Virus genome (UHGV): UHGV-0780004 | DNA from: a virus | Strand: one strand, 5' to 3' | Length of the DNA: 31,733 bases | Shown here: piece by piece, positions 5,322-31,656 of the stretch | Layout of the letters: every line of letters begins with the position of its first letter | Position numbering within the stretch: the first letter of the stretch is position 1 | Translations under genes and position numbers: made by a program | Notes under the pieces: generated by a model | The model's input: only the letters and a program-made list of their open reading frames with translations | Database searches by the model: none | What the model was told of the DNA's origin: nothing

Positions 5322-6408
5322 CCTGTCCCGACCCGCCAACGGCTGGTTCCACGTTGAGAAAAGCGGAGACCATGACGTTGACTACGGCGAGGGTCCCGCC
5401 GTGTTGCGCATCGACGAGCAGGCGATCCGGGACATGGTGGACGACTTCAACGCCCGCACCTTTGACGGCCCGGGCATGCTCATCGACGGCGACCACCTGA
5501 GCCACGACCTTTCCCGCGATACTCGGGCCCTCGGATGGCTCAAGAGGCTGGACACCTACCGCGACCCTTCCGGCACGCTGGAACTCTACGGGTTCATCGA
5601 ATGGACGCCGCGCGGCCTGAAGATGCTGCAGGACAAGGAATACACGCAATCATCCACCGAATATGGCGAAGGCATGACTTTGACGGACGGCGTCTACCGC
5701 CCGTCGCGTCTGACCGGCTTCGCTCTGACCAACCGGCCGCGCATCAAGGGAAAGCGGCCTCTGGTCAACCGACAGACTTCCCCCGCCTCCGACGAGGCCG
5801 GGGGCGACCCCAAAAGCCCCGAAGAGGGGGAAACAACCCAGAAAACCAATATGGAAAACGAAGATATAGAATATCCGTCCAAGGAGATGGACAAGGCCCA
5901 GCGGGCCCTGTTCGACTCCCTGCTTGACAAGCTGGATGTCGAATTTGACGGCACCGACGACATGAGCAGGGCGATCCTCGGACGCCTTGATGAACTGCTC
6001 TCGCTGGAAAAGCGTGAGAAAGACCACGTGAACGCCGAAGTGGACGACGCCGTCAGCACGTACGAAAACGCGCTGGACGAGGAAGAACGCGAGGAATTCA
6101 CGGAAGAACGCCGGGAAGAGCTGAAAAACTCTCTCCGGGAAAGCCCCGCCGCGCTGAACGCTTTTATCCGTGCGCTCAACCGCCAGACTCCGCCCAAAAA
6201 ACCGGATCAGGAGGAAAAGAAGGAACTGCCGAAAAGGACGCCTCTGAACCGCCGCGCGACGCTGAATCCCCCTGACCCATTCCGCAAGAAGGAATCCATT
6301 GACGGATTCAACAACCGCGTCAACGAACTGATCAAGGACGGCATGAAGCGCTATGACGCCTACCAGAAAGCGACCGAAGAAGGCTTCATCGTCTCCGCCA
6401 ACCGATAA
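5296..6408 (+). CDS. Mu-like prophage protein I (head protease with an acidic scaffold-like C-terminus)
   Basis: The segment LIDGDHLSHDL...ALGWLKRL...GTLELYGFIEWTPRGLKMLQDKEYTQSSTEY matches the Mu I protease family signature. The C-terminal half is acidic and coiled-coil. Confidence 0.8.
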   Translation: MISTKQINDLSRPANGWFHVEKSGDHDVDYGEGPAVLRIDEQAIRDMVDDFNARTFDGPGMLIDGDHLSHDLSRDTRALGWLKRLDTYRDPSGTLELYGFIEWTPRGLKMLQDKEYTQSSTEYGEGMTLTDGVYRPSRLTGFALTNRPRIKGKRPLVNRQTSPASDEAGGDPKSPEEGETTQKTNMENEDIEYPSKEMDKAQRALFDSLLDKLDVEFDGTDDMSRAILGRLDELLSLEKREKDHVNAEVDDAVSTYENALDEEEREEFTEERREELKNSLRESPAALNAFIRALNRQTPPKKPDQEEKKELPKRTPLNRRATLNPPDPFRKKESIDGFNNRVNELIKDGMKRYDAYQKATEEGFIVSANR

Positions 6409-15314: not shown

Positions 15315-16829
15315 ATGACTTACCAGGCCCCCTACGCGGCGCGCTACGTTTCCGCCGCCGGCAACCAGATCCAGCTGCTCAACCTCTGGGACGATACGCC
15401 GGAGCCTCCCCGCTTCGGCGGATCCATGGAGGCATTTGAAACGTCGCTGGTAGACGGACCGCGAGCGTTCGCGCAGGGGCTGGGAAGCGCCGTGGAGCAG
15501 CGCACCATCGCGTTTTACCGCTGGTTTACGGATTATCACGACATGGCTTCCTGGCAGGAGAACCTGGCGTTGTGGCTGGCCAGCAACCAGAACGGCTATC
15601 TGTACCTGCAGTTCTCCGACCAGCCGCAATGGCGTTTTGCCGCCGTCATCACCGGCTACCAGTTTGAGACGGAGAACTTTGTTCCTCCGCCGTCTCCCGA
15701 AGACGGCTATCTGTGCCTGCTGGTCACGCTGACCATGACGGTCACCGACCGGACCCCGGACAATTCCAACTGGATATTCAGCGTGACGCCCTCTTCTTTC
15801 GACGTTCCCGTCAAGGGAGGCGAATACACCATTAATGTGGAATCGTCGTTCAGCCCTGGACCGGTAGGGCAGGGGTGGCAGATTGCCGACGTTTCCGAAG
15901 GATTAACCGTTTCCGATATCGTCAACGGCAACAACGGGACATTTAAGGTTATCGTCGCGGCCAATGAAGGAGACCAGGACAGGACCATGTCGCTCCAGGT
16001 CATTCAGGACGGAACAGGACAGACTGTTGAGGTTGAATTTCGTCAGCTTCAACCCTCTTACTCCTTCAACCTTGCTCCAACCCAGGTACAGGTTCCCGTT
16101 ACTGGCGGAAGCTACCAGGTCCAGGTGACTTCCTATTATGACCCGGGGGAAGTCAGCGTTGACTGGACGCCCAATTCTCCCAGCTCTTCCGTTGTCATCT
16201 CCGATATCACGAACGGAAATAACGGGTCCTTCACGTTAACCGCGGCCCCCAATGAAGGAGCGGCCGGCTCCGTCGTCGTTTCCGCGACACAGGCGGATTC
16301 CGGGTTAAAACAGACAATCCGCGTATTGAGGGCAGGACTGGTCACCCGAAATCATCAGCTTCCCCCGCCCGGAGGGGAATACTCGGATAATCCGATGAGT
16401 TATTCCTCATGGAGGTTTATTCCCTCGGACGTTTATCCGGACTTCCCGGAAGGCAACCCCGAAGGAAAGGGACTGACGCTGCAGGAAATCATCACGACGA
16501 AACCCACCAGCGCCAATTCCGGCACGTTAACGCTTTACCGGGTGGAAAACGGGTCTGCCTCTCTTCTGGCGACCAGCAGCGAGGCGGTTTTCACCGGAGA
16601 GGGCGGAAACGCGAAATGGACGTTTTCTCCCGGCGTGGAAATCCGTTCGGACTGGCAGCTGGTCGTGGAAAACCAGAACGGCATTTATGAGCAGCATGCC
16701 ATGCTGGCCAATCCGCAGGCGTTTGACGGCCTCGGAAATGCCATCTACCCCATGCCGGCGGACGCTCCCGGGCGCACGTTCGGATTATCCCTCGTCATCC
16801 GCTACACTTCCACCGAATACCCATCTTAA
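15315..16829 (+). CDS. Tail protein with two tandem BACON/Ig-like domains (major tail protein candidate with a surface-binding module)
   Basis: Two repeats of about 85 aa (residues ~155-245 and ~250-340, nt ~15777..16335) follow the pattern VPVxGGxYxxxVxSxxxxGxxxxxWxxxxxxxxxxISDIxNGNNGxFxxxxAxNEG. The gene lies directly upstream of a small chaperone-like gene and the tape-measure candidate. Confidence 0.5.
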   Translation: MTYQAPYAARYVSAAGNQIQLLNLWDDTPEPPRFGGSMEAFETSLVDGPRAFAQGLGSAVEQRTIAFYRWFTDYHDMASWQENLALWLASNQNGYLYLQFSDQPQWRFAAVITGYQFETENFVPPPSPEDGYLCLLVTLTMTVTDRTPDNSNWIFSVTPSSFDVPVKGGEYTINVESSFSPGPVGQGWQIADVSEGLTVSDIVNGNNGTFKVIVAANEGDQDRTMSLQVIQDGTGQTVEVEFRQLQPSYSFNLAPTQVQVPVTGGSYQVQVTSYYDPGEVSVDWTPNSPSSSVVISDITNGNNGSFTLTAAPNEGAAGSVVVSATQADSGLKQTIRVLRAGLVTRNHQLPPPGGEYSDNPMSYSSWRFIPSDVYPDFPEGNPEGKGLTLQEIITTKPTSANSGTLTLYRVENGSASLLATSSEAVFTGEGGNAKWTFSPGVEIRSDWQLVVENQNGIYEQHAMLANPQAFDGLGNAIYPMPADAPGRTFGLSLVIRYTSTEYPS

Positions 16830-16843
16830 CAGAATAATCCATC

Positions 16844-17125
16844 ATGAACGAACAACAACAAAACGGAATAGAACGGCTTTTCATTGAATTCGCCGAAGAG
16901 TGCGGCAAGAACCCGAACCTGAACCAGGCGGCGCAGGAATTGAAGGAAAGCGTCTTTGCTGCCTCTCAAGCCGCCGGCGTTGATCCCTCCCATGCCTTCG
17001 GCGTCATCATCCGGGATATGATGCTCCTGGAATCCTTGCAGAAACGCGTGGAAGAATCCCGCAACGCCCTCACCGCCGGGAAACTGCCCGCTTTCGTCAT
17101 CGAGGAAGCCCGCGCTCAACGATAA
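16844..17125 (+). CDS. Putative tail assembly chaperone (93 aa)
   Basis: It is a small acidic protein immediately upstream of the tape-measure candidate. Confidence 0.3.
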   Translation: MNEQQQNGIERLFIEFAEECGKNPNLNQAAQELKESVFAASQAAGVDPSHAFGVIIRDMMLLESLQKRVEESRNALTAGKLPAFVIEEARAQR

Positions 17126-17143
17126 CCCTCCACCTTTACCACC

Positions 17144-18991
17144 ATGGCCACCAAGAAAGAAATTGAAATCAAACTCAAGTCCACGCTGGACGGAAAAGGC
17201 GTGGAAGAAGCCAAACAGCAGATCGACGCGCTGAACAAGTCTACGGAGCAGTTGGATAAAAACAGCAAGCAGGCAACCAGGAGCGTGAAGAACATGGGGC
17301 AGGGGGCCTTGCAGGCTGCCTATTTCTTCGATGACTTGCAGTACGGCATCCGGGGCATCATGAACAACATTCCCGGGCTGGTGATGGGATTCGGAGGCGG
17401 CGCAGGTCTGGCCGGCGCAATGTCGCTTGCCGTTCTGGCCGGGGCGAAGCTTTACGATTGGATGGGGAACACGGAAGCGAAATCCAAAGAGCTTGCTAAG
17501 GCGATTGAAGAGGAAGCAGAAGCATTTAGAAAATTAAAAGCAGAGGTTGAAGAGACATGGCGGCAAAATCAAAACGAGCAAATTTTAAGAGAAGCTTTAG
17601 ATAGTGCAAAGAAAATAGCTGATTATCGAAAGCTGGAATCAGAAGCCTTAAAATATTCTCTGGATTATCGTAAAGAATTGATTTCTTTAGAATCAGGAAT
17701 CAAAGACGATGAAGCAGAAATTGCCCGATTAAAGGTAGAAGAAGATTTTGCAAATGGACTATTAGGAGAAGGATCAGATGCAGAACGAAGAAAAGCACGT
17801 TTGTTGGAAGGAATTGAATTAGATAGTCGTGCAAGGAGAAGAGGAGAAATAGAAGAATCAGCAAGTTTGGATGTATCGGATGCAGTAAATAAAAGAATAG
17901 ATGCAGCACGAAGACAAAGAGAAGCTAAGGCCGCCTTGCAAAACGCATCTATTAATGATGATATAATGACCCTGGAAGAGAGACGAGCTGCAGAAGTTTC
18001 TGTAGAAGAACAGACTAATTCATTGAGAAATGACTTATACGATTATTTAATATCTTTAAGGGATAAAGAAGTAAATTTAGGGGCTATTAGGTATAAACAA
18101 GTTAGCGATAAAAATATTTATGATGCAGTATCTCAATTTGTTGGCGGTAAAAATATATCTGATAGAAGAATTTCATCCTTGCTTGATAAATATGGTTATA
18201 TCAACGCAGAAGATAGAAGAGATAAAATATTTAACACAGAAGAAGCCATAAAGAAGAGTGATATTGCCCTTGAAGATAGCGGATTCTCTTTAGGTAATGG
18301 AACTTCTGGCGAAGGTGGATATAGTAATGCCTATGCATCTTATGCAAAAACTATAGAAACTCTTGAAAAAGAATATGAAGAGGCGGAAAAATCTCTAATA
18401 GAAGCTATAAATGAAGAAGAAAAGGCAACGAGAAACTTTTCTAATATAAAAAAGAAAAATGAATCGGAAGCGGCAGTTGATGAACAACGAGGGAGGACCG
18501 CTCAAGCGCAAGAGAGAAAATCCATTAGAGAAGAAAGACAAAGAGAAGACGCCGAGAATGAAATTAAGGGGCGAAAAAAAGATATAGATAAGAAAACAGA
18601 GGAACTTAAAAAGAATAATGAGTATTTTTCAGAGGCTGTAGATAGGTTTATAGTGGAGGCTGGAAAATCTGCCACTGACCAACAAAAGGCACTTGTTAGA
18701 GCTGCATCTGAAGCTATACGTGGACAGGTGAAGAAAGCCGCTTCCGATGGAGTAATAGATTCTCGAGAATATGAACAAATTGGAATAGCGTTTAGAGACG
18801 CCTTAAGACAACAGGGCATTACTAATCAATCTATATTGAACGGACTTTCCGGAAACATGAAAGAAGCTCTATTACTGATTAACATTCAATCAGGAGAACT
18901 AAAAAATCTAAAAAACGGTTTGGATCAAATGAAAAAAGACTTAGAACAAGCTAAAAACAATATAGAGGGCTTAAGAAGAAGAAAGCATTGA
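17144..18991 (+). CDS. Tape measure protein candidate (615 aa). The N-terminus has hydrophobic Gly-rich segments, and the rest is a long charged coiled coil.
   Basis: The N-terminal segment is GLVMGFGGGAGLAGAMSLAVLAGA, followed by long Glu/Lys/Arg-rich helices. The position fits a tape measure. From about 17470 onward the gene is markedly AT-rich. Confidence 0.5.
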   Translation: MATKKEIEIKLKSTLDGKGVEEAKQQIDALNKSTEQLDKNSKQATRSVKNMGQGALQAAYFFDDLQYGIRGIMNNIPGLVMGFGGGAGLAGAMSLAVLAGAKLYDWMGNTEAKSKELAKAIEEEAEAFRKLKAEVEETWRQNQNEQILREALDSAKKIADYRKLESEALKYSLDYRKELISLESGIKDDEAEIARLKVEEDFANGLLGEGSDAERRKARLLEGIELDSRARRRGEIEESASLDVSDAVNKRIDAARRQREAKAALQNASINDDIMTLEERRAAEVSVEEQTNSLRNDLYDYLISLRDKEVNLGAIRYKQVSDKNIYDAVSQFVGGKNISDRRISSLLDKYGYINAEDRRDKIFNTEEAIKKSDIALEDSGFSLGNGTSGEGGYSNAYASYAKTIETLEKEYEEAEKSLIEAINEEEKATRNFSNIKKKNESEAAVDEQRGRTAQAQERKSIREERQREDAENEIKGRKKDIDKKTEELKKNNEYFSEAVDRFIVEAGKSATDQQKALVRAASEAIRGQVKKAASDGVIDSREYEQIGIAFRDALRQQGITNQSILNGLSGNMKEALLLINIQSGELKNLKNGLDQMKKDLEQAKNNIEGLRRRKH

Positions 18992-19024
18992 AAAAAAATG
19001 AGGATATTGTAAATTCCCAAATTT

Positions 19025-22609: not shown

Positions 22610-23797
22610 ATGGCAGGGATTATCAAAAGAAGTAATAAATGGGTGGCCGTCTTCAAGACGCTCGACGGTAAAGAGATCAGGAAAACTACCCGTGTCGACG
22701 TGGTCCCAAAGGTTATTCCACCCGGGACAAATAAAAGAGCGCTCATAGCGCAAAACGAGGCCAGGGCTCGTCTTATTGCCGAGGAGCTTGAGAATGGACA
22801 CAAGACCGGCTTTATTGACTCGCAGCGGCTCAAAGCTATAGCTGGCGGAGATGTTCAGGCGGCCAGCCTTGGCAGAAAGGTTGTGAGCGTTGGGGCGTAT
22901 CTCCATGAATGGTTGCAATCACGATCTGGCAAGATTCAGGCTTACGAAAGAGACGGGAAGGCCGTCAAGCAGTTTATTTTGTTCTTGAGGAACGATGGGG
23001 GACAGGCAATAGCATCCATCAATAAAGACACCGTGAGACGATTTGCGGAGACAGAAATGGAGCGCGTGTCATCCGGTACAGTCTCAAGGTATCTTGAATC
23101 TCTTTCCTGTGCGTTTAACCAGGCGGTGGAAAAAGAATTGATCATCTCCAATCCTTTCAGGGGGGCTCGACTGGATAAGAAAAAAAAGCAAGACGATAAA
23201 CAGGAGCGTAGTGCGTTCACCGTGGAAGAGGTGAAAAGACTGGTGGAGATTTTGCCGGGGGAATGGCCGGATATGATACGTGTATGCCTTTATACGGGCG
23301 GCCAGCGTCTTGGAGACATTGCCACTCTCAGATGGGAGCAGGTGAATCTGGAGGGCGGCTTAATCTCCATGACCTCGCAAAAGACCAAGCGGCGTATGAA
23401 CAAACCAATCATCGGGCCGCTGAAAGAGATATTGAAAGAGAGGGAAAAGTATTCCATCAATGAATTTGTGTTCCCCTTGGCCGCCATGAAGCATGCACAG
23501 GGCGGGGGGAAGTCCAGCAAGCTCTCTCTTGAGTTTACCGGACTACTGAAAAAACACGGCATGATTTCTTCCGGGGAAAGGAAAGTGCCAGGCGATAAGC
23601 GTGTGCTGTCTGAAAAAAGCTTCCACAGTTTGAGAGCCACCGCAGTGACGATTTTAAGACTGGCAGGCGTGCCGGCGGACTTGTGCCGTTTCATTGTAGG
23701 GCATGATTCTGAAGAGATTGAACGGGTGTACTTTCGGCCCGATTCGCAGGATGTCGTTCACGCAATGGAGGAAATATCCAGCAAGATTATTTTGTAA
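22610..23797 (+). CDS. int: Tyrosine-type site-specific recombinase (phage integrase)
   Basis: It has an N-terminal SAM-like domain. The catalytic region carries R (GGQRLGD), H-x-x-R (HSLRAT), VGH and Tyr (RVYFRP). It is 395 aa. Confidence 0.9.
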   Translation: MAGIIKRSNKWVAVFKTLDGKEIRKTTRVDVVPKVIPPGTNKRALIAQNEARARLIAEELENGHKTGFIDSQRLKAIAGGDVQAASLGRKVVSVGAYLHEWLQSRSGKIQAYERDGKAVKQFILFLRNDGGQAIASINKDTVRRFAETEMERVSSGTVSRYLESLSCAFNQAVEKELIISNPFRGARLDKKKKQDDKQERSAFTVEEVKRLVEILPGEWPDMIRVCLYTGGQRLGDIATLRWEQVNLEGGLISMTSQKTKRRMNKPIIGPLKEILKEREKYSINEFVFPLAAMKHAQGGGKSSKLSLEFTGLLKKHGMISSGERKVPGDKRVLSEKSFHSLRATAVTILRLAGVPADLCRFIVGHDSEEIERVYFRPDSQDVVHAMEEISSKIIL

Positions 23798-24127: not shown

Positions 24128-24505
24128 TTATTCCCCTTTGTTTTTCTCTTCCTGTAACCGTTTCATAAGGAGTTCTTTATTGTCTCCTGCATATTCCAAG
24201 ACGTAAATAATCCAGTCCACGATATTCATGCCGCAGGCTTTCGCATAATTATTGAATTCGAGGAATTTATCATGCGAGACCTTGAGGTTGATATCAAGAT
24301 CAGCGATAGAGATTTGGCTATCGTCGGCAGGTTGGGGTTGGTTCATTAGGTTGTCAATAATGATCAGAGCCTTTTTGGGGATAGTGCGGCTTTTGGAAAA
24401 CCAGTTGTTGACAACTAGGTATTTCACTCCGCATTGGTCCGCCAACCATTGCCGGGTTTTTCCGATGTCTTTAAGCCATTGATCTATCTCTTCTTTTGTG
24501 TGCAT
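24128..24505 (-). CDS. Dual-domain DNA-binding regulator: an N-terminal YdaS/Cro-like HTH and a C-terminal ribbon-helix-helix-like domain (immunity repressor candidate)
   Basis: The N-terminal HTH segment is KTRQWLADQCGVKYLVVNNWFSKSRTIPKKALIII. The C-terminal segment LKVSHDKFLEFNNYAKACGMNIVDWIIYVLEYA follows a strand-helix-helix pattern. It is minus-strand and divergent from the downstream small genes. Confidence 0.5.
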   Translation of the reverse strand: MHTKEEIDQWLKDIGKTRQWLADQCGVKYLVVNNWFSKSRTIPKKALIIIDNLMNQPQPADDSQISIADLDINLKVSHDKFLEFNNYAKACGMNIVDWIIYVLEYAGDNKELLMKRLQEEKNKGE

Positions 24506-25394: not shown

Positions 25395-25658
25395 ATGAAT
25401 AAAGAACAAACGATAGTCAGCCTCCTTATTGAGCTGGATAAAATGCTCAAAGTCGAAACCCACGAGGACGCCAATCCATGCTTCAGCATCAATGAGCCTG
25501 AAGACAAAATTCTCCGGGCGAAATACGCAGGGAGAATTTACGGAGCCCGAAGGCTTTTAGGATTGAGCCTCGAGTCCCAGCCCGGAGCATTGTTTCCCGA
25601 CAAAGAAAGGGATGCGTTTACCGATCTTGTTGAGAAGAGCCAGGAACCTCCCGCTTGA
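25395..25658 (+). CDS. Hypothetical protein (87 aa)
   Basis: The ORF overlaps the 3' end of the convergent DUF4177 gene by 40 nt. Confidence 0.3.
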   Translation: MNKEQTIVSLLIELDKMLKVETHEDANPCFSINEPEDKILRAKYAGRIYGARRLLGLSLESQPGALFPDKERDAFTDLVEKSQEPPA

Positions 25659-25830
25659 ACAAGAACACTAAGGAAGGATCGCCGTGTAATTTTTCGGAAA
25701 TAGGATAAATAGCCGACACAAGTTCCCATCCATCTTTTCCTTGATTGTTAAGAACTTCCATATGCTTTTCCCATACGTCCTTATTATGATTTACTGCCAA
25801 GTATGTATATTCGAATTTAGCCATAACCAA
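25618..25830 (-). CDS. DUF4177 domain protein (70 aa)
   Basis: The segment MAKFEYTYLAVN...VLNNQGKDGWELVSAIYP...SLVFLFKRE matches the DUF4177 pattern (kwEYk......LN.lG.eGWELV.......v.fKR). Confidence 0.55.
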   Translation of the reverse strand: MVMAKFEYTYLAVNHNKDVWEKHMEVLNNQGKDGWELVSAIYPISEKLHGDPSLVFLFKREVPGSSQQDR

Positions 25831-25890: not shown

Positions 25891-26106
25891 ATGAACCGTT
25901 CAAAGCCGAAAGGCAGGGGCTCCATTAAAGAAACAATCATGATCATCGAATACGACTACGAAGACCGCTGCATCCGGATGGATGGAGAGTTTATCACGCT
26001 GGACGAGGCGAGTGGCTTGCTGGGAGCTTTGGAGATTGCCATTGACCAGTGGGAAGCGGACCACACCACCTGCGAAAATCCCGACGGCCACAACGACGAA
26101 TTTTAA
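25891..26106 (+). CDS. Hypothetical small acidic protein (71 aa)
   Basis: The ORF lies where GC content rises back toward the phage backbone. Confidence 0.3.
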   Translation: MNRSKPKGRGSIKETIMIIEYDYEDRCIRMDGEFITLDEASGLLGALEIAIDQWEADHTTCENPDGHNDEF

Positions 26107-26114
26107 CCAAAGCC

Positions 26115-26453
26115 ATGAACGGGAACGGAAAAACGATAGCCAGTCTCGCGGATGCCTTGGAAGTGCTGTCCGGAGTGCTGAGGGAATTGGCGACCACTCC
26201 GATTCCTCCCTCTGCTGAGGCAGCGAGCGTCGGAATGAATAATTTTGTTCCGGTAGATGAATTCGGAAGCGCGAAAGATTGCGCTGAACGGTTTCACTAC
26301 TCCGTCAGCGGCATTACTCCTTATTTGGCGGAGGGGGTGAGGCTGGGGAAAATTACCAAGATGACGCCTGTGAACAATCAACGAGGAAGGAAGGGCGAGG
26401 CGCGCTTCAACATGCGCGAAGTTAGAGATTTTCTCTCCAACCAATCAAAATAA
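26115..26453 (+). CDS. Excisionase/AlpA-like HTH DNA-binding protein (113 aa)
   Basis: The segment SAKDCAERFHYSVSGITPYLAEGVRLGKITKM...RFNMREVRDFL fits an Xis-family HTH. It is the first gene of the early operon downstream of the integrase island. Confidence 0.4.
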   Translation: MNGNGKTIASLADALEVLSGVLRELATTPIPPSAEAASVGMNNFVPVDEFGSAKDCAERFHYSVSGITPYLAEGVRLGKITKMTPVNNQRGRKGEARFNMREVRDFLSNQSK

Positions 26454-26833
26454 TGAATACACATCAACATATTATCGACCGAGGCCCTTACAAGGGCATG
26501 GTGGAAACTATCACTGACAATCCCCATCCAGCCAAGACGACGCGCTGCTACATGTGCGCAGCGCCGCTGAAAGCCTCGTCTTCATGGATGTCCCTGGTAG
26601 GGGACCATCAGGACGGCGTCTTCACCGCGCGCTTTCTGTGCCCGTTATGCGCCAGAGAACGCCTCAACGGCATCCCGGACGAAGCGGAGCGCTGCTGGAA
26701 CTATACCCAAGCCGCCCAATCAGGGCCCCGGATTACCAAAATCCTCGCTTACCTGATTTTCTGGTGTGGACTGGTTACTGCCGGAGGAACATTCCTCTTC
26801 TTAATTTTCCTCCTGCTCAAAAACCTTTTTTAA
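26453..26833 (+). CDS. Zn-ribbon protein with a C-terminal TM anchor (126 aa)
   Basis: It has a CYMC...CPLC metal-binding pair and the hydrophobic tail ILAYLIFWCGLVTAGGTFLFLIFLLL. Confidence 0.4.
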   Translation: MNTHQHIIDRGPYKGMVETITDNPHPAKTTRCYMCAAPLKASSSWMSLVGDHQDGVFTARFLCPLCARERLNGIPDEAERCWNYTQAAQSGPRITKILAYLIFWCGLVTAGGTFLFLIFLLLKNLF

Positions 26834-26859: not shown

Positions 26860-27573
26860 ATGCAAAAATACAAATTTACTGGAGAAACAAAGGAGGTGTA
26901 TGGCTGCACCTTGCACCAGATCGTATGCGTAACAGCGTTTGCCTCCGTCGCTGCCGGAGAGGTTGGCGGCTACATTGAAAAAGAAGTCAACCTGTCCCAA
27001 GACGGGAACGCCTGGGTCTTCGGGGACGCCGAGGTCTTCGGGAACGCCGAGGTCTTCGGGGACGCCAAGGTCTTCGGGAACGCCAAGGTCTTCGGGAACG
27101 CCAAGGTCTTCGGGAACGCCAAGGTCTTCGGGGACGCCAAGGTCTTCGGGAACGCCAAGGTTCGCGGGGACGCCGAGGTCTTCGGGAACGCCGAGGTCTT
27201 CGGGAACGCCGAGGTCTTCGGGGACGCCAAGGTCTTCGGGGACGCCAAGGTCTTCGGGGACGCCGAGGTCTGCGGGGACGCCGAGGTCTGCGGGAACGCC
27301 ATTTTGAGACGTGGGTCCACCGAGACGGCAACCGATTACATCGTGATTGGACCCCAGGGATCGCGCCGGAGTTTTGCGACGTTGCATTTACCCTCCAATA
27401 CGGTGTGCACTGGGTGTTTTGTCGGAGACTTGAATGAATTCAAGGTAGCGGTCTCCACTAGTCACAATCCTAATCACTGTGATGACTGCAAGATCTTCAA
27501 CGAGCAGTATCAGCGTGTTATCCAGGTGTTTGAATTTTACGCGAAGGACCGTCAAGACAAAGATGTTCAATGA
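26860..27573 (+). CDS. Hexapeptide tandem-repeat protein (237 aa): about 16 consecutive (D/N)A(E/K)VFG units, flanked by Cys-containing N- and C-terminal regions
   Basis: The array is read directly. The C-terminus contains CTGCFVGDL...HCDDCKIF. The operon context favours the + strand. All frames are open through the array. Confidence 0.5.
   Translation: MQKYKFTGETKEVYGCTLHQIVCVTAFASVAAGEVGGYIEKEVNLSQDGNAWVFGDAEVFGNAEVFGDAKVFGNAKVFGNAKVFGNAKVFGDAKVFGNAKVRGDAEVFGNAEVFGNAEVFGDAKVFGDAKVFGDAEVCGDAEVCGNAILRRGSTETATDYIVIGPQGSRRSFATLHLPSNTVCTGCFVGDLNEFKVAVSTSHNPNHCDDCKIFNEQYQRVIQVFEFYAKDRQDKDVQ
27007..27300. repeat. 18-bp tandem-repeat array (about 16 units of [G/A]ACGCC[G/A]AGGTCTTCGGG)
   Basis: The units are near-identical and differ only at two A/G positions. 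This makes it a VNTR-like locus within the coding sequence. Confidence 0.9.
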
Positions 27574-27652
27574 GCAGTTGGCCGGGGCCAGCACCAACTG
27601 GTCCCCGGCCTGTTACGAATGCAACCTACAAAATTACAATTAGTAACGAGTT

Positions 27653-28753
27653 ATGAATACACCAAGTGAAGCCACGCGGCAAGAGAAAGTAATGGCTCCC
27701 TCCAAGTCCACCGAGCTTGCCGTCAGCCTGGACAATCTGGCCTTGGAAGCCCAACAGGCGTTGAGCTGTAAGGGCAGTTTTGAAAAGGCCATCAACATGG
27801 GCATTGCCATGAACCGGCTGCGCGACGCCCTGACGCCAGAAATCATGAAATCCATCATGAAGCTGAAAGGTTCCCAGCTCGGCTTCCGCACCGATGAATG
27901 CCAGCCGACACAATACAAGGAAGGCATTTCCTATGGTGTGGATGCGGTCAGGGAATGCCTGATTGTAGCCACCTGCATGGGGCTTTCTCCGGTGGGCAAT
28001 CAATGGAACATCCTTGCCGGGCGCACGTATGTGACCAAGGAAGGCATGACCTACCTGCTGAAAAATCTGGATGGCCTGACCAATTTGAAGATGGTCTATC
28101 ATCCCGCCGAAATCAAAGAGTCCTCCACTTCCGGCATCAGCAAGCAAGGTAAAGAGTACCAGAAGATTGAACGGGAAGGATTGGTGAGAGTAGATATGAG
28201 CTGGGAGTTCAAGGGTGTTCCGGATTCCGAGACTCTTGAGTTCTGTATTCGTGTGAATAACGGAATGAGCCAGGATGCCATCATTGGCAAGGCGGAACGC
28301 AAGGCCAAGGCATGGCTTTATTCCCACCTGACCGACACGATTATTTCCGATGGTGAGGTGGAAGACGGACGAGAAATGCGGAATGCTACTCCGGATTCCG
28401 GAACGCAGAAACCGAAGGCCGGCAATCCTCTCGCCGGGGCGGCAGTTCCTCCGCCAGTGGCGGCGGCTCCCAAGCAAGAAGAAAAGCCCATCGAGCCGGA
28501 AGTGGTTTCCTCTCCCCCTCCTGCTGCCGATTTGAAGCTGGAACCGGAAACGTCTGTGAGCGTGGCGGACCTGGAAAAGCTGCTGCAAGCCCATGGCGTG
28601 AGCATGCCTCAGGTGGTGAAGTTCTGTCAGAGCCAGCAGATTTACTACGTGCAGGGAGCCAGCCGGGAAGAGACGTTTCCTCCCAAGACGCTGGAATGGC
28701 TGGTAGCGAATTTCAACCAGGTGATTGCCTGGGTGGGAGCCTCCGGGAAGTAA
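27653..28753 (+). CDS. RecT/Redbeta-like single-strand annealing protein with a Pro-rich linker and an extra C-terminal domain (366 aa)
   Basis: The core VRECLIVATCMGLSPVGNQWNILAGRTYVTKEGMTYLLKNLDGLTNLKMVYHP resembles the RecT family pattern (GL.P.....ayl.p.....i.Y.G...La..sg). The gene is paired with a downstream exonuclease. Confidence 0.45.
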   Translation: MNTPSEATRQEKVMAPSKSTELAVSLDNLALEAQQALSCKGSFEKAINMGIAMNRLRDALTPEIMKSIMKLKGSQLGFRTDECQPTQYKEGISYGVDAVRECLIVATCMGLSPVGNQWNILAGRTYVTKEGMTYLLKNLDGLTNLKMVYHPAEIKESSTSGISKQGKEYQKIEREGLVRVDMSWEFKGVPDSETLEFCIRVNNGMSQDAIIGKAERKAKAWLYSHLTDTIISDGEVEDGREMRNATPDSGTQKPKAGNPLAGAAVPPPVAAAPKQEEKPIEPEVVSSPPPAADLKLEPETSVSVADLEKLLQAHGVSMPQVVKFCQSQQIYYVQGASREETFPPKTLEWLVANFNQVIAWVGASGK

Positions 28754-28781
28754 GCGCACAAGATAGAAAGGACATTTAACC

Positions 28782-29720
28782 GTGAATGTTTTAGATTTAT
28801 CGGGTTTTACAGCTTCCGGCGTGGCTTATGGCCGGGTGGATAACCCCCAGGCGTACCACGATTCCAAGAAGGGTATTCCTCATTGCGTTTCCAAGTCCAT
28901 GCTGATGGATTTTGCCCGGAATCCCTATAAATGGAAGTACCGGCAGGATGAAGGAATTGAGAAGGTTTCCCTGGGGTTCCGGTTTGGCAGTTTGGTGGAT
29001 TGTCTGGCCCTGACGCCGGAGCAGTTCCAGAACTCCTATCTGGTGGAGGAATGGCAACCGGGGGTGAACAAGAACGGCTCCGTGTCCAAGACAAAGCAGG
29101 ACGACGGGCAAGCAGCTCGCTGGGCGGCGTTTGCCGACCGTGGGGGAGCCGTGTTGACGCCGGAAGAATACGCCGAAGCACAGAAGGCCGTGGGGATTTT
29201 CAATGACTATTTGAAGACGGAACACGGCTTGGTGCTGGGGGAATCGTTTGAATCCCAAGTGGCGATGTACAAAACGCTGCTCATTGAATATGCACCGGAC
29301 AAGCCGCCGGTTCCGATCACGATCACGGGCATGATTGACATTCTGCCCCATGATATCGATTTGCCGATCATCGACATGAAGACGACCTCCACGCCCGTGG
29401 AAGATTCCGGCCTGATTGATAGAGACATGGCCCGCTACGGTTACGGCTGGCAGGCTGCCTTGTACTGCGATTTGTATGAGGCGATCTTTGGCATACGCCG
29501 TGATTTCATGTTCGAATTTATGGAGTCTGTGGCCCCTTACTGCATTTCCGAGGTCCGGATGGACCAGGAGGCCCTGGAGCATTACCGGGGGCAGTATATG
29601 GCCGCCCTGCGCCAGTTCGCCGAGTGCGTGGCGACGGGGATTTATCCGGGGGCCGTGGTTCTGCCGCGGTATTACCGCATCCCGCGTTGGGAACGCAAAT
29701 TGGAAGGAGGTGCGGCATGA
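28782..29720 (+). CDS. PD-(D/E)XK exonuclease (YqaJ/lambda-Exo-like)
   Basis: The motif is GMIDILPHDIDLPIIDMKTT (D...D-x-K). It sits in the position partnering the annealing protein. The start is GTG. Confidence 0.5.
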   Translation: MNVLDLSGFTASGVAYGRVDNPQAYHDSKKGIPHCVSKSMLMDFARNPYKWKYRQDEGIEKVSLGFRFGSLVDCLALTPEQFQNSYLVEEWQPGVNKNGSVSKTKQDDGQAARWAAFADRGGAVLTPEEYAEAQKAVGIFNDYLKTEHGLVLGESFESQVAMYKTLLIEYAPDKPPVPITITGMIDILPHDIDLPIIDMKTTSTPVEDSGLIDRDMARYGYGWQAALYCDLYEAIFGIRRDFMFEFMESVAPYCISEVRMDQEALEHYRGQYMAALRQFAECVATGIYPGAVVLPRYYRIPRWERKLEGGAA

Positions 29721-30302: not shown

Positions 30303-31189
30303 ATGAGCTACATCTTTTCGCGGGCGCTGGTGGAGGCATACTTGGAAGCGAGCTGCTCGGATTCCGCACCGTTTGCGCTGTCGAACTTGAACCCTATCCC
30401 GCAAGCGTACTGCTCGCTCGGCAGAATGACGGCCTACTCCCGCCTTTCCCGGTTTGGGATGACGTGCGCACCTTTGACGGACGACCGTGGCGCGGCCTTG
30501 TTGACGTGGTATCTGGAGGCTTCCCGTGCCAGGACATTTCCGCAGCAGGAAAAGGCGCCGGCATTGACGGCGCCAGATCCGGCCTCTGGCGGGAAATGCA
30601 CCGGATTGTTGGCGAAGTACGACCGAAATATGTCTTTGTGGAGAACTCCCCAATGCTCACTTCTCGCGGGCTTGGATGTGTTCTTGGGGACTTGGCCGCG
30701 ATCGGGTATGATGCGGAATGGATGGTGCTGGGAGCGGACGACGTGGGTGCCCCGCATGAGCGTAAGCGCATGTGGATACTTGCTGTCAACTCCGCCGCTG
30801 GGGCAGGGCATGAAATTCGCAACCCCGCAAGCCAGGGATTTCAGGACGGGAGAAGCCAGAAGATGGGACAATCCAGCCCGAAGCCGGAACCTGAACGACC
30901 AGATTGCAAAATTCCCGACTCCAAGAACAAAAGGCATGTGCGGAGGAAGTGGGGCTTTTCAGAAAATGAAAGCCCTGGAAGCCGAAGGGATTGTCACGAC
31001 GGAAGAGCGGAAACAAATGACTGCGGGGAGTGGTGGTCAGCTGAACCCGACGTGGGTCGAGTGGCTCATGGGGTGGCCGCTAGAGTGGACCGCCTTAAAG
31101 CCATTGGCAACGGGCAAGTACCGGCTGTGGCAGCAACTGCATTCCGGGTTTTGCTTGGCAGATTCCAAGAAGGAAAGGAGGGCAAGTGA
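30299..31189 (+). CDS. DNA (cytosine-5)-methyltransferase, orphan
   Basis: Motif I is LFAGAGG, motif IV is GFPCQDIS (the PCQ catalytic Cys), the ENV-like motif is FVENSPML, and motif X is RLKAIGNGQVP. Confidence 0.85.
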   Translation: MNELHLFAGAGGGILGSELLGFRTVCAVELEPYPASVLLARQNDGLLPPFPVWDDVRTFDGRPWRGLVDVVSGGFPCQDISAAGKGAGIDGARSGLWREMHRIVGEVRPKYVFVENSPMLTSRGLGCVLGDLAAIGYDAEWMVLGADDVGAPHERKRMWILAVNSAAGAGHEIRNPASQGFQDGRSQKMGQSSPKPEPERPDCKIPDSKNKRHVRRKWGFSENESPGSRRDCHDGRAETNDCGEWWSAEPDVGRVAHGVAARVDRLKAIGNGQVPAVAATAFRVLLGRFQEGKEGK

Positions 31190-31656
31190 AGCCTGTGCTT
31201 GATGCCTGCTGCGGCTCCCGCATGTTCTGGTTTGACCGCCGCCATCCTGACGTGGTGTTCATGGATCGCCGGCATGAAACGCACACGCTTTGCGACGGGC
31301 GAACCCTGGAAATCAAGCCGGATGTCGTCGGAGACTTCCGGGCCATGCCTTTCAGCGACGGGGAGTTTCGCCTTGTCGTGTTCGACCCTCCACACCTGAT
31401 TCACGCTGGGGAATCATCCTGGCTGGCCAAGAAGTACGGAAAACTGGACAGGGAGACTTGGCAGGAGGATTTGAAGGCCGGTTTCCGGGAGTGTTTCCGG
31501 GTTTTGGAACCGGGCGGCGTTCTGGTGTTCAAATGGTGTGAGGATCAGGTCAGCACGGCAGAAGTGTTGAAGCTGGCCAGCCATGAACCTTTGTTCGGAC
31601 ACCGCCGCGGGAAGACCGTCTTCCTGGTCTTTATGAAATCTACAACCCCCAACTGA
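31186..31656 (+). CDS. Small phage Dam-like SAM-dependent DNA methyltransferase (156 aa)
   Basis: Motif I is LDACCGS and motif IV-like is FDPPH, followed by VLEPGGVLVF. A GTG start overlaps the stop of the C5-methyltransferase gene. Confidence 0.45.
   Translation: MKPVLDACCGSRMFWFDRRHPDVVFMDRRHETHTLCDGRTLEIKPDVVGDFRAMPFSDGEFRLVVFDPPHLIHAGESSWLAKKYGKLDRETWQEDLKAGFRECFRVLEPGGVLVFKWCEDQVSTAEVLKLASHEPLFGHRRGKTVFLVFMKSTTPN

Follow-up and report, generated by a model that had tools for sequence, protein, structure and literature searches.

The closest described relatives of the protein analysed here are YdcK of Salmonella and E. coli (PDB 2f9c and 2pig), a chromosomally encoded protein of 326 aa whose rungs are irregular and diverged and whose gene has no tandem DNA repeats, and the phage proteins of PHROGs 7964, 5070 and 20532. 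Examples of the latter are orf229 of Streptococcus phage Sfi19, gp229 of Sfi18, gp43 of Mannheimia phage 587AP2, gp031 of Bacillus phage phiAGATE and gp64 of Mycobacterium phage Boilgate. The PHROG annotation of the family is 'unknown function', and no homolog with an experimental or annotated function was found. Moreover, the literature search returned only incidental mentions of YdcK and no functional study of it, and queries on hexapeptide or hypervariable prophage repeats, on left-handed beta-helices in anti-defence and on tandem repeats of Akkermansia prophages retrieved nothing on the family. Other solenoid or elongated proteins serve as more remote points of comparison. NeuO, the O-acetyltransferase of the E. 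coli K1 prophage CUS-3 (PDB 3jqy), is a true enzyme in which a 7-bp repeat at the 5′ end, outside the helix, switches the reading frame on and off. The pentapeptide-repeat fold mimics DNA in MfpA and Qnr, while bactofilins are right-handed helices without caps. Finally, the beta-solenoid antifreeze proteins, such as that of the spruce budworm (CfAFP, PDB 1m8n), are eukaryotic and secreted, with a Thr-x-Thr ice face and disulfides.

The window, that is, the whole 31,733-nt stretch of virus genome UHGV-0780004 that was analysed, comes from a temperate Akkermansia phage and contains in its list of open reading frames a plus-strand gene for a 237-aa protein at positions 26860–27573 (stop codon TGA at 27571–27573). 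As in the proteins of the three PHROGs, its product has three parts, aligns with them over the full length (35–48% identity over 80–95% of the window query in tblastn), is encoded in an early position and contains an array with a period of 18n bp. The rungs of those proteins are more diverged and use other codons, whereas the units of the Akkermansia-phage lineage are unusually homogeneous (91% matches in TRF). YdcK, in contrast, lacks the C-terminal domain of the window protein, which carries the motif GSR...GCFxG..EF. Unlike the 7-bp repeat of NeuO, the 18-bp unit of the window is always in frame and itself forms the helix. The antifreeze solenoids have no sequence relationship to the window protein, lack its cap and C-terminal domain and belong to a different biology.

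The original prediction, made from the sequence alone, had not recognized the repeat family, which turned out to be the YdcK beta-solenoid repeat (PF18836, NF040481); the protein belongs to phage family PHROG 7964. The phrog_7964 profile matched residues 1–230 over profile positions 25–266 of 269 (E 2.9e−63, 214 bits), and the NCBIfam model YdcK_fam (NF040481) matched residues 13–138 over positions 21–139 of 326 (E 3.5e−20, 72.2 bits). Since the latter score does not reach the YdcK equivalog cut-off of 350 bits, the protein is a YdcK relative and not an equivalog. YdcK itself was found through PDB 2f9c (E 9.3e−17), with residues 4–137 aligned by phmmer to YdcK 15–138, while the match to the Pfam YdcK beta-solenoid repeat PF18836 was borderline, its 21.5 bits (E 1.9e−4) lying under the 30-bit gathering threshold. 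Precomputed PF18836 matches occur in many close relatives, some of them marked faint. The N-terminus, MQKYKFTGETK, agrees with the family consensus MKKYELTxETK, and residues G36, G37, N44, T174, G185 and Y217 are invariant in an alignment of 59 PHROG 7964 members. A total of 5095 homologs at E ≤ 1e−5 were obtained among the 8000 candidates scored.

The three-part architecture of PHROG 7964 (N-terminal cap, hexapeptide solenoid and C-terminal domain with the GCFxG motif) was found in full in the window protein. The cap (aa 1–48; 26860–27003, plus strand) consists of two beta-hairpins ahead of the helix and is homologous to the N-terminus of YdcK in the phmmer alignment. In the AlphaFold2 model it has strands at residues 4–13 and 16–23 with pLDDT 96–98, in the YdcK-type order of a cap followed by a left-handed helix, and its DNA is 100% identical in the related contigs L134–L137 and L139. 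The linker and C-terminal alpha/beta domain (aa 151–237; 27310–27570, plus strand; phrog_20532) carry the motif GSR...T...GCFxG..EF...H...Y and are modelled with four strands (residues 160–190) and two helices (191–201 and 208–236) at pLDDT 84–93. A profile of this domain retrieved 4042 cluster representatives (about 4000 clusters at 50% identity), and its position is always C-terminal. It also sits behind pentapeptide repeats (P0185), behind another repeat (P0262) and behind an HTH (P0261), as would suit a scaffold that can be exchanged. No relatives of the domain were found in Pfam, searched with 26 members, or in BFVD, and its PHROG matches were limited to families of unknown function. The best hit of the PDB profile search, a thymidine kinase at E 0.02, was not credible, and whole-model fold searches were dominated by the helix.

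Between these two domains, the array is confidently folded by AlphaFold2 as a beta-helix continuous with the conserved cap and C-terminal domain, as had been anticipated, and not as a disordered region. About 5.5 turns of left-handed beta-helix are predicted, with three units per turn. The left-handed, trimeric LpxA-like helix is recognizable in all its features: the hexapeptide period places an aliphatic residue at position i and a small one at i+4, and 18 residues make up each triangular, left-handed coil. The structural neighbours of the model are left-handed helices. Judging from the DSSP register and canonical left-handed geometry, Val and Ala would point into the core, Gly-Asn/Asp would form the corner and the three variable residues would face the solvent. 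This fold raises the question of whether the protein is a hexapeptide-repeat acyltransferase, a gamma-carbonic anhydrase or a bactofilin-like cytoskeletal polymer, since homologs are annotated as 'putative acyltransferase', 'trimeric LpxA-like protein' or 'polymer-forming cytoskeletal protein' and a weak match to Pfam Bactofilin (PF04519) was obtained. However, that match scored 18.8 bits against a gathering score of 27.9, and the window model, left-handed and capped at both ends by conserved domains, does not resemble a bactofilin. Furthermore, no match to Hexapep (PF00132) appeared at E ≤ 0.1, identity to the enzymes was 7–23% and confined to the helix, and the array has neither loops or insertions nor conserved His or metal ligands, while its number of turns varies freely. 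An enzyme or a cytoskeletal polymer is thus scarcely credible, and the analysis shows that the acyltransferase, glycerol kinase and cytoskeletal labels given to homologs in databases are unfounded.

At the DNA level, TRF detected one array in the window, at 27003–27301, with a period of 18, 16.6 copies, 91% matches and a score of 444, and no second copy of the repeat elsewhere in it. Laid out in the reading frame, the array (27004–27309, plus strand) comprises 16 regular 18-bp units (27004–27291), in agreement with the approximately 16 near-identical units first described, and a degenerate 17th unit encoding GNAILR (27292–27309). Read in the frame of the ORF, each unit encodes G-(N/D)-A-(K/E/W)-V-(F/C/R). 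Variation had been ascribed to two purine positions, and these are indeed columns 4 (A/G, giving Asn or Asp in a ratio of 9:8) and 10 (A/G, giving Lys or Glu). However, unit 1 has a T in column 10 (TGG, Trp), column 17 alternates between T and G (Phe or Cys, with Cys in units 15–16) and unit 9 terminates in GTTCGC (Val-Arg). Silent third positions are otherwise identical across the units of the window. The perfect units are free of stops in all six frames, as had been stated for the array as a whole, but a single stop (TGA, in the second frame of the plus strand, offset 1) lies within the degenerate last unit. Six-frame openness was seen in 0 of 20,000 shuffles, although this is a trivial consequence of how the unit reads. 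In-frame TAG recoding, hinted at by a 'TAG' in several TRF consensus units, was rejected, as no actual unit has an in-frame TAG and the triplet is a column-majority artefact of TGG and AAG.

Large differences in unit number were observed among close Akkermansia-phage relatives, in which 68 distinct arrays of 1–22 units were counted from assemblies rather than reads, all differing by whole units and in register. Whole turns were not favoured, the unit counts modulo 3 being 26, 23 and 19. In particular, contigs L134, L136, L137 and L139 have flanks that are 99–100% identical, yet their arrays range from 10.5 to 21.5 units in differing orders. The gain and loss of units expected from the repeat was thereby borne out, and the locus is an in-frame coding VNTR. 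Rods of this family acquire, drop and reorder units much more rapidly than the remainder of the gene diverges. Conversely, identical arrays were recovered from independent assemblies (L001 = L002 = L003 = L008, L005 = L140 and L007 = L145), including one 11.5-unit array that recurs in the genome of an isolate, in two metagenomes and in IMG/VR.

These comparisons also bear on the exact size of the window array, which comes from an assembly and would need reads for confirmation. Because units 5–7 are identical, short reads cannot fix the count there. An assembler could have inflated or mis-ordered an array of few true units: the array is longer than typical short-read k-mers, several related contigs terminate in or at it (L094, L015, L037 and L040), many relatives assembled from short-read metagenomes show no more than 1–3 units, and the exact window protein has no match in the contig index. 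Nevertheless, such an artefact is highly unlikely, as arrays of 10–22 units with their own unit orders occur in many independent assemblies, contig L135 has the last eight units of the window save for one residue, the 11.5-unit array recurs unchanged in sources as different as those named above, distant family members bear 8–45 units, and the array keeps its frame and connects conserved domains. The arrays of 1–3 units, mostly on short-read metagenome contigs, may themselves be assembly collapses.

The pattern of substitution was equally distinctive. Among 261 pooled units, nucleotides 4, 10, 11 and 17 (plus 2) were highly polymorphic, whereas each third position varied in ≤4% of units, and silent sites were near-invariant even when the lineages compared share only 73–77% identity in their flanking coding DNA. 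Targeted mutagenesis of the DGR type was rejected, since no reverse transcriptase was found among the large ORFs of the phage, there is no template repeat and all 261 units have an adenine at position 5. Recombination across the array is indicated by the combinations of N-type and C-type domains, all four of which are present (A-A 20, A-B 7, B-A 3 and B-B 13), so that the array is a crossover site. Near-invariant silent sites could also reflect a constraint at the DNA or RNA level. Together with the crossovers and the stop-free frames, they might suggest that the array is primarily a recombination hotspot, a set of protein-binding iterons or a replication repeat, with coding a secondary matter. 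This explanation was considered very improbable. Recombination itself accounts for the homogeneity, a spacer-free head-to-tail period of 18 bp is not typical of iterons, and the modelled beta-helix is joined to conserved domains. Furthermore, other phage lineages encode the hexapeptide array with quite different codons, for example GGTAATGCTAAGGTCTAT and GGCAATGCAAAGGTTTCC, which means that the conserved thing is the protein.

Arrays with a period of 18n bp were present at 216 of 221 family loci despite differing codon usage, indicating that unit turnover is family-wide. The family is carried by phages of Bacillota, Bacteroidota, Proteobacteria, Actinobacteria and Verrucomicrobia. Homologs adjoin SAM lyases, share a block with an ocr-like gene, or lie upstream of the T7-like RNA polymerase or near DNA methyltransferases. 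In Mannheimia phage 587AP2 the homolog comes directly after RecT-exonuclease, and in another prophage DUF1351-Erf-SSB is located two genes downstream of it. A strict association with recombination genes was nevertheless rejected, being true in several phages and absent in others. An association with plasmid leading regions was rejected too, as the plasmid matches (Bartonella and others) lack the C-terminal domain (0 at ≥80% coverage) and are thus different cap-plus-helix proteins. Separately, matches in Liberibacter phages spanned residues 36–164 only, and no link was drawn to the known hyv repeat genes.

In the window, the solenoid gene had been placed between xis and the recombination genes. 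Its position in an early operon, directly upstream of a region with a PD-(D/E)XK/exonuclease VIII-like gene, was confirmed, but the gene labelled xis (26049–26453) had no Pfam, PHROG or PADLOC match. The immediate upstream neighbour (26453–26833, plus strand), identified from its ORF and translation, encodes a protein of 126 aa that contains CxxC...CxxC and has a hydrophobic helix at its C-terminus; no Pfam, PHROG or PADLOC family was found for it. Its DNA is 94–96% identical in both phage lineages, compared with only 77% between lineages for the solenoid flanks. In Akkermansia phages this gene and the solenoid gene are conserved together, and the gene order is kept in L001–L003. Downstream, on the same strand, follow a 366-aa protein (27653–28753) without PDB, Pfam or PHROG match and the PD-(D/E)XK/exonuclease VIII-like nuclease (28782–29720; Pfam DUF3799/PDDEXK_1, phrog_412 exonuclease VIII). 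This stretch (27653–29720) has counterparts at about 90% DNA identity in L004 and L144 alone, and RecT/YqaJ/RuvC fill the corresponding position in L001–L003; it is presumed to be a recombination module that close relatives have swapped for RecT-YqaJ-RuvC. Right after the stop codon, a G+C-rich hairpin (27580–27610, plus strand) has a predicted folding energy of −27.3 kcal/mol (z −3.0), a stability matched by 0 of 200 shuffles, and lacks a T-run, for which reason the terminator scan did not report it. It lies within the last 42 bp (27574–27615) that are 100% identical in L134, L136–L139, L148 and L149, after which homology stops. The hairpin is tentatively taken as a transcript-end or stability element and as a module boundary, and the solenoid gene as a whole is bounded by mosaic junctions.

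This location, directly upstream of the recombination module both here and in relatives and with similar siting in 587AP2 and the DUF1351-Erf-SSB prophage, recalls that of Gam beside bet/exo in lambda. It would suit a rod that resembles a DNA duplex and inhibits a nuclease of the host, for example a restriction enzyme or RecBCD/AddAB, and the original prediction had likewise drawn a parallel with acidic solenoids that mimic DNA. MfpA/Qnr and Ocr/ArdA resemble the window protein in being solenoid or elongated and mildly to strongly acidic, Ocr is also an early phage protein, and in the relative P0185 pentapeptide repeats, as in the MfpA/Qnr class, replace the hexapeptide rod ahead of the same C-terminal domain. 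The protein is, however, only mildly acidic (pI 4.98), with a net charge of about −9 over 237 aa and of about −6 in the array (about −0.38 per unit), which is far lower than in those mimics, and units 4–9 all carry Lys, making two whole turns basic. Across the family, position 4 of the unit is K/R in 886 units and E in 317. The window repeat has a period of 6 and not 5, and its helix is left-handed and triangular and not right-handed and quadrilateral. Sequence and fold searches revealed no resemblance to Ocr, ArdA, Gam or pentapeptide families, a mimic of fixed length would not allow 1–22 units, and linkage to recombination genes is frequent rather than general. A DNA-mimic inhibitor is therefore improbable.

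The charge of individual rungs had moreover been proposed to toggle combinatorially as an adaptive device, a notion that the data make unnecessary. In the Akkermansia-phage arrays the net charge was under-dispersed (0.57 vs. an expected 1.39 ± 0.30), and K/E pairs of the same sign were less frequent at lag 3 (0.40) than at lags 1, 2 and 4 (0.53–0.55), with P-values inflated by the phylogenetic relatedness of these arrays. Lag-3 salt bridges were rejected as a family-wide law, since the opposite-charge signal, clear in the Akkermansia lineage, did not reach significance in 149 diverse arrays of the family (0.579 vs. about 0.60, permutation P 0.14). Overall, under-dispersed charge and oppositely charged stacked residues fit, to a limited degree, a structural balancing of charge.

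It was also considered whether the exposed rung residues are a binding surface, of a decoy or an effector in anti-defence, that is diversified, along with rod length, across the phage population by the gain, loss and reshuffling of units, so as to evade an immune sensor of the host or track a variable target in it. Such an arms race would agree with variation restricted to replacement sites of three presumed surface positions over almost fixed silent sites, with the different arrays of alleles whose flanks are 99–100% identical, with the mosaic junctions on both sides of the gene and with homologs near SAM lyases, an ocr-like gene, a T7-like RNA polymerase and DNA methyltransferases. However, every lineage, and the family at large, draws on the same tiny alphabet of residues (N/D; K/E/W/R/Q; F/Y/S/C), which differs from what open-ended diversification would produce, and the under-dispersed net charge is what structural constraint predicts. 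Since units differ only at surface sites, any recombination within the array mimics 'targeted' substitution. Besides, identical arrays in independent samples argue against rapid change within strains, conservation lies in the cap and the C-terminal domain and not in the rod surface, and no anti-defence annotation was found, PADLOC giving no match for the solenoid gene or seven neighbours. Arms-race diversification is accordingly unlikely. The related proposal of a contingency locus, in which recombination-driven gain, loss and reshuffling of rungs yields varied rods that are selected through recognition by an immune sensor or variable binding to a defence protein, is rather doubtful as well.

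The reading that we consider probable is that the gene encodes an early phage protein that is not an enzyme and consists of three parts, a member of the widespread YdcK-like/PHROG 7964 family, in which a 48-aa beta-hairpin cap is followed by a left-handed beta-helix rod and by an 85-aa alpha/beta domain that would act as the functional head. The near-identical 18-bp units would be the footprint of concerted evolution, with ongoing duplication and deletion of units and homologous exchange within the array between the alleles of co-occurring phages, while selection would hold the core codons and maintain a balanced mix of charged and aromatic residues on the surface. As the rungs of a beta-helix are modular, about 1 to 22 units can be tolerated, and this tolerance makes the rod most likely a rigid scaffold, indifferent to length, that bears the conserved C-terminal domain. 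The protein would be made early in infection or induction, and its genomic context suggests an early role, most likely in host takeover or as an accessory to DNA metabolism. We infer this scaffold role, as we do the oligomeric state and any function of the protein.

The family is very large and occupies early or host-takeover regions, which places it among the common 'dark' early genes of phages. To it are now added a defined architecture, consisting of a cap, a left-handed beta-helix rod and a novel C-terminal domain, and documented polymorphism in unit number among near-identical alleles. The locus displays the concerted evolution of a structural repeat with unusual clarity, with a free number of rungs, frozen core codons and variation in the surface codons alone. 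In practical terms, the array is a marker for strain typing of Akkermansia prophages and a spot at which assemblies from short reads break up or collapse. If the contingency reading were true, the family would be a repeat-based generator of counter-defence diversity that works without a reverse transcriptase and has thousands of members; and if the rod surface is under arms-race selection, it would represent a new type of diversity generator. If it is not, the family offers a natural series for the length tolerance of beta-helices.

A single strong tandem repeat was detected in the window by TRF (27003-27301, period 18, 16.6 copies, 91% matches, score 444), lying inside the ORF 26860-27573 (+), which encodes a 237-aa protein. 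Read in frame on the + strand, the array comprised 16 regular units (27004-27291) and a degenerate 17th unit (27292-27309), in agreement with the roughly 16 near-identical 18-bp units first described, the exact count remaining uncertain because units 5-7 are identical. The unit product was G-(N/D)-A-(K/E/W)-V-(F/C/R). Variation had been ascribed to two purine positions only; these were indeed variable (nucleotide 4, A/G, giving Asn/Asp in a 9:8 ratio; nucleotide 10, A/G, giving Lys/Glu), but changes were also found at nucleotide 17 (T/G, Phe/Cys, units 15-16), at nucleotide 10 of unit 1, where T gave Trp, and in unit 9, which ended in GTTCGC, the third (silent) positions being otherwise all alike. 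Likewise, the absence of stops in all six frames held for the perfect units but not for the degenerate last one, with the only stop of the array (TGA, second frame of the + strand, offset 1). This openness, which none of 20,000 shuffles of the segment reproduced, is a trivial property of the unit sequence itself.

The repeat, initially not recognised as belonging to any family, was placed by matches to NCBIfam YdcK_fam (E 3.5e-20, 72 bits, with an equivalog cut-off far above, at 350), to Pfam PF18836, the YdcK beta-solenoid repeat (21.5 bits vs. a gathering score of 30), and to PHROG 7964 over the full protein length (E 2.9e-63). Moreover, PHROG 5070 matched the cap and repeats and PHROG 20532 the C-terminal part, all three PHROGs being listed as of unknown function. 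A total of 5095 homologs at E<=1e-5 were found among the 8000 candidates scored in the database search. The sole solved relative was Salmonella YdcK (2f9c/2pig, E 9.3e-17), aligned from the N-terminus through the first rungs, and the literature search yielded no functional study of it. The solenoid protein thus adds a member to a phage family that is related to YdcK, already known, very large and uncharacterised. The Bactofilin Pfam match was below threshold (18.8 vs. 27.9 bits) and is the source of the label 'polymer-forming cytoskeletal protein' on some homologs. Other homologs, in Streptococcus Javan phages (MK448716, MK448905, MK448861, MK449004 and MK448933) and in ON624112, were named 'glycerol kinase' or 'MFS-type transporter', which is a mis-annotation without sequence support. 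Furthermore, many separate cap-plus-helix matches occurred in Lactobacillus phage LfeInf (KP054477, 9 places), Streptococcus phage phiST1 (KC413988, 5) and plasmid NZ_CP054155 (17), suggesting paralogous expansion within single elements.

The AlphaFold2 prediction from the single sequence was confident for the rungs only, while a mean pLDDT of 89.5 was reached with A1, an alignment of 59 sequences. In the predicted model, two N-terminal hairpins (residues 4-23) precede a solenoid with a 2-residue strand per six residues (residues ~50-150) and a C-terminal domain of four strands (160-190) and two helices (191-201 and 208-236). A Foldseek search against the PDB returned YdcK as the top match (E 1e-6), so that the beta-solenoid or left-handed beta-helix originally proposed is borne out by both model and match. 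Fold neighbours included enzymes (acyltransferases and gamma-carbonic anhydrases) as well as purely structural helices (dynactin p27/p25, CcmN and the spruce budworm antifreeze protein). An enzymatic role appears improbable, as nothing suggests catalysis: no Hexapep match was found in Pfam, the rungs have neither insertions nor loops, and the number of turns varies freely. The canonical hexapeptide rule places an aliphatic residue at i and a small one at i+4. Accordingly, Val and Ala would form the core and Gly-Asn/Asp the corner, with unit positions 2, 4 and 6 pointing outward.

Among 55 close relatives, a nearly constant 48-aa N-domain and ~85-aa C-domain enclosed differing numbers of units, with protein lengths stepping by 6 aa (147, 153, 159 ... 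239). When DNA loci from IMG/VR, GTDB genomes and metagenomes were added, 68 distinct arrays of 1-22 full units were obtained, always in register, some of the low counts being uncertain since very short arrays came mostly from short contigs and several short-read contigs ended inside or at the array (L094 at 4001-4210, L015, L037 and L040). Such arrays are therefore systematic assembly breakpoints, and public unit counts need care. Whole helical turns were not favoured (unit count modulo 3, 26/23/19). The N-terminal coding flank (144 bp) of L134, L135, L136, L137 and L139 matched the window at 100% identity, as did the C-terminal flank (264 bp) of L136 and L139 (98.9% in L134, L137 and L138), while unit numbers were 15.5 (L134), 16.5 (L135), 21.5 (L136), 12.5 (L137) and 10.5 (L139), in different orders. 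Evolution is much more rapid in the array than in its flanks, and the predicted gain and loss of units is thereby seen between near-identical flanks. In particular, related arrays had prefixes and suffixes in common and differed in internal blocks: L136 corresponded to L139 plus about ten internal units, and the first ten units were common to L134 and L137. Slipped or unequal recombination is expected to leave such a pattern. Assembly noise does not account for the arrays, as identical ones recurred: one of 11.5 units was present in an isolate genome, in two metagenomes and on one IMG/VR contig (L001, L002, L003 and L008), and two others in the pairs L005/L140 and L007/L145.

Across the family, TRF detected a tandem period that was a multiple of 18 in 216 of 221 loci, with up to ~45 copies and 65-95% matches. 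These loci belonged to unrelated hosts and used different codons (e.g. GGTAATGCTAAGGTCTAT and GGCAATGCAAAGGTTTCC); therefore, what is conserved is the protein repeat, and what recurs is the turnover at the DNA level. In Vibrio breoganii phages (MG592510, MG592418, MG592511, MG592419 and MG592579), three to six annotated 'CRISPR_spacer' features lay over the homologous gene, so that in these records the gene is a protospacer target with multiple matches.

The 261 units of 19 distinct DNA arrays were pooled, showing variation at nucleotides 4 (A 159, G 102), 10 (A 117, G 101, T 43), 11 (A 216, G 45), 17 (G 91, T 80, A 63, C 27) and 2 (G 241, A 20), while each third codon position varied in <=4% of units. 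These frozen codons, GGG-RAC-GCC-NRG-GTC-TNC, recurred in a second phage lineage (L001 and L005-L007), whose flanking coding DNA was just 73-77% identical to the window. All four pairings of N-domain and C-domain types were found (A-A 20, A-B 7, B-A 3 and B-B 13); therefore, lineages cross over in or at the array, and one unit pool feeds all of them. Two joint processes would account for this pattern. The first would be exchange within the array, which looks like 'targeted' substitution because units differ at the hot positions only; the second would be selection at the protein level, as silent sites should be as variable as surface sites under neutral drift, which is not the case here. A DGR was excluded: no ORF of the window matched a reverse transcriptase, there was no template, and the adenine at unit position 5 was invariant.

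The surface alphabet was small and the same family-wide (N/D; K/R/W/E/Q; Y/F/S/C). Moreover, array net charge was under-dispersed (0.57 vs. 1.39 +/- 0.30 for random draws), and Lys/Glu residues at position 4 had the same sign in 0.40 of pairs at lag 3, stacked on successive turns, compared with 0.53-0.55 at lags 1, 2 and 4. Both signals agree better with selection for a surface that is balanced and stable than with open-ended diversification, but are suggestive only, since the arrays are related to each other and the lag-3/6/9 dip in 149 diverse family arrays was small and not significant (0.579 vs. a permutation mean of 0.598, P 0.14). The required balance would consist of charge pairing between turns and of keeping the rod from being entirely Phe or entirely Lys. 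It appears improbable that the shuffling of rungs has been selected as a generator of diversity for counter-defence.

A C-domain profile built from the alignment A2 matched 4042 cluster representatives at E<=1e-3 (1782 at E<=1e-10), the domain being always C-terminal among these matches. Of the best 147, 99 lay behind a hexapeptide rod and 24 were short proteins, most of them starting inside a hexapeptide run and likely to be truncated calls; a few followed other parts, namely pentapeptide repeats (P0185), a GGxIR/W repeat (P0262) or a Cro/C1-like HTH (P0261). No relatives of the C-domain were found in Pfam, PDB, annotated PHROGs or PADLOC, and the BFVD matches were uncharacterised family members only. 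In A1, conservation was concentrated in the cap and C-domain rather than on the rod surface (invariant G36, G37, N44, T174, G185 and Y217). As the rod is interchangeable and free in length while the C-domain is conserved, the functional head would be the C-domain, with the rod as its rigid scaffold. The original prediction that the rod is an acidic DNA mimic directed against host defences was not supported: the protein is acidic (pI 4.98), but its net charge is about -9 (array about -6), units 4-9 all contain lysine, position 4 is K/R in 886 units family-wide vs. E in 317, and tolerance of 1-22 units is not expected of a protein that imitates DNA of a defined length.

The window is a complete, permuted temperate-phage genome of 31.7 kb, encoding a DnaC-like loader (684-1424), large terminase (2473-3819), portal (3873-5321), protease/scaffold (5296-6408), tyrosine integrase (22610-23797) and methyltransferase (31186-31656). 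A leftward 125-aa gene in the repressor position (24128-24505) had no family match, while its counterpart in L001 showed a faint YdaS match; a rightward early operon was also identified. Within this operon, a 70-aa DUF4177 protein (25618-25830, E 1.6e-7) lies on the opposite (-) strand, and the ORF 26049-26453, previously named xis, had no family match. In the structural region, G+C fell to 0.35-0.47 at 17001-19000 (0.53-0.65 in adjacent genes), within a 615-aa ORF (17144-18991, +) without family matches, which may include a recently acquired tail-fibre or receptor-binding segment. Furthermore, a 504-aa protein (15315-16829, +) gave a weak, sub-threshold match to BACON, a putative glycan/mucin-binding domain (E 0.003, 17.8 bits vs. 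25), which, if true, is of interest in a phage of a mucin degrader.

The closest relatives were Akkermansia prophages, including one with CXU03_08685 of A. muciniphila (a hypothetical protein; isolate assembly GCA_002885235.1) and another in an Akkermansia sp. MAG. In these, a YdaS-like gene of opposite orientation and small genes were followed by a 126-aa protein and the solenoid gene, then by RecT, YqaJ and RuvC, with a methyltransferase and an IstB/DnaC-like gene further along. In the window, the RecT-YqaJ-RuvC slot (27653-29720; 8737-10644 in L001) held a 366-aa protein followed by a PD-(D/E)XK / exonuclease VIII-like nuclease, a module common to the window, L004 and L144 (~90% DNA identity), so the recombination module differs among otherwise related phages. 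The 366-aa protein, without relatives in Pfam, PHROG or PDB, may be an unrecognised single-strand annealing protein. Directly upstream of the solenoid gene, the gene 26453-26833 (+) encodes a 126-aa protein with two CxxC pairs, which may form a zinc ribbon, and a hydrophobic helix at its C-terminus, with no family matches; its DNA was 94-96% identical in both Akkermansia-phage lineages, compared with only 77% for the neighbouring solenoid flanks, and the solenoid protein may have a conserved partner in the 126-aa product. A G+C-rich hairpin without a T-run (27580-27610, +; -27.3 kcal/mol, z -3.0) directly follows the stop codon, and the 42 bp 3' of the stop were 100% identical in seven related loci, beyond which homology stopped abruptly; therefore, the hairpin would mark a mosaic module boundary.

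Elsewhere, the homologous gene directly followed RecT and an exonuclease in Mannheimia phage 587AP2, and lay just upstream of the replication module in Streptococcus phage Sfi19 (orf229). One prophage had it two genes ahead of DUF1351-Erf-SSB, a phage with a family-A DNA polymerase had it beside two SAM lyases, and in Javan64, Boilgate and one further contig it was near DNA methyltransferases. In autographivirus Aer_P220 and in KF-1 it was one of the small early genes, upstream of the phage RNA polymerase and of the DNA polymerase/primase, respectively, and in Bacillus phage phiAGATE it belonged to a small-gene block including an annotated ocr-like gene. Linkage to recombination genes was frequent but not general, and the shared context was early or host-takeover territory. 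Neither PHROG annotation nor the literature search provided an experimentally supported function for any homolog. The best-supported reading is that of an early scaffold protein without enzymatic activity, the conserved C-domain of which engages a putative target. Its VNTR-like, concertedly evolving beta-helix, with a free number of rungs, frozen core codons and variation in the surface codons alone, is real and family-wide.
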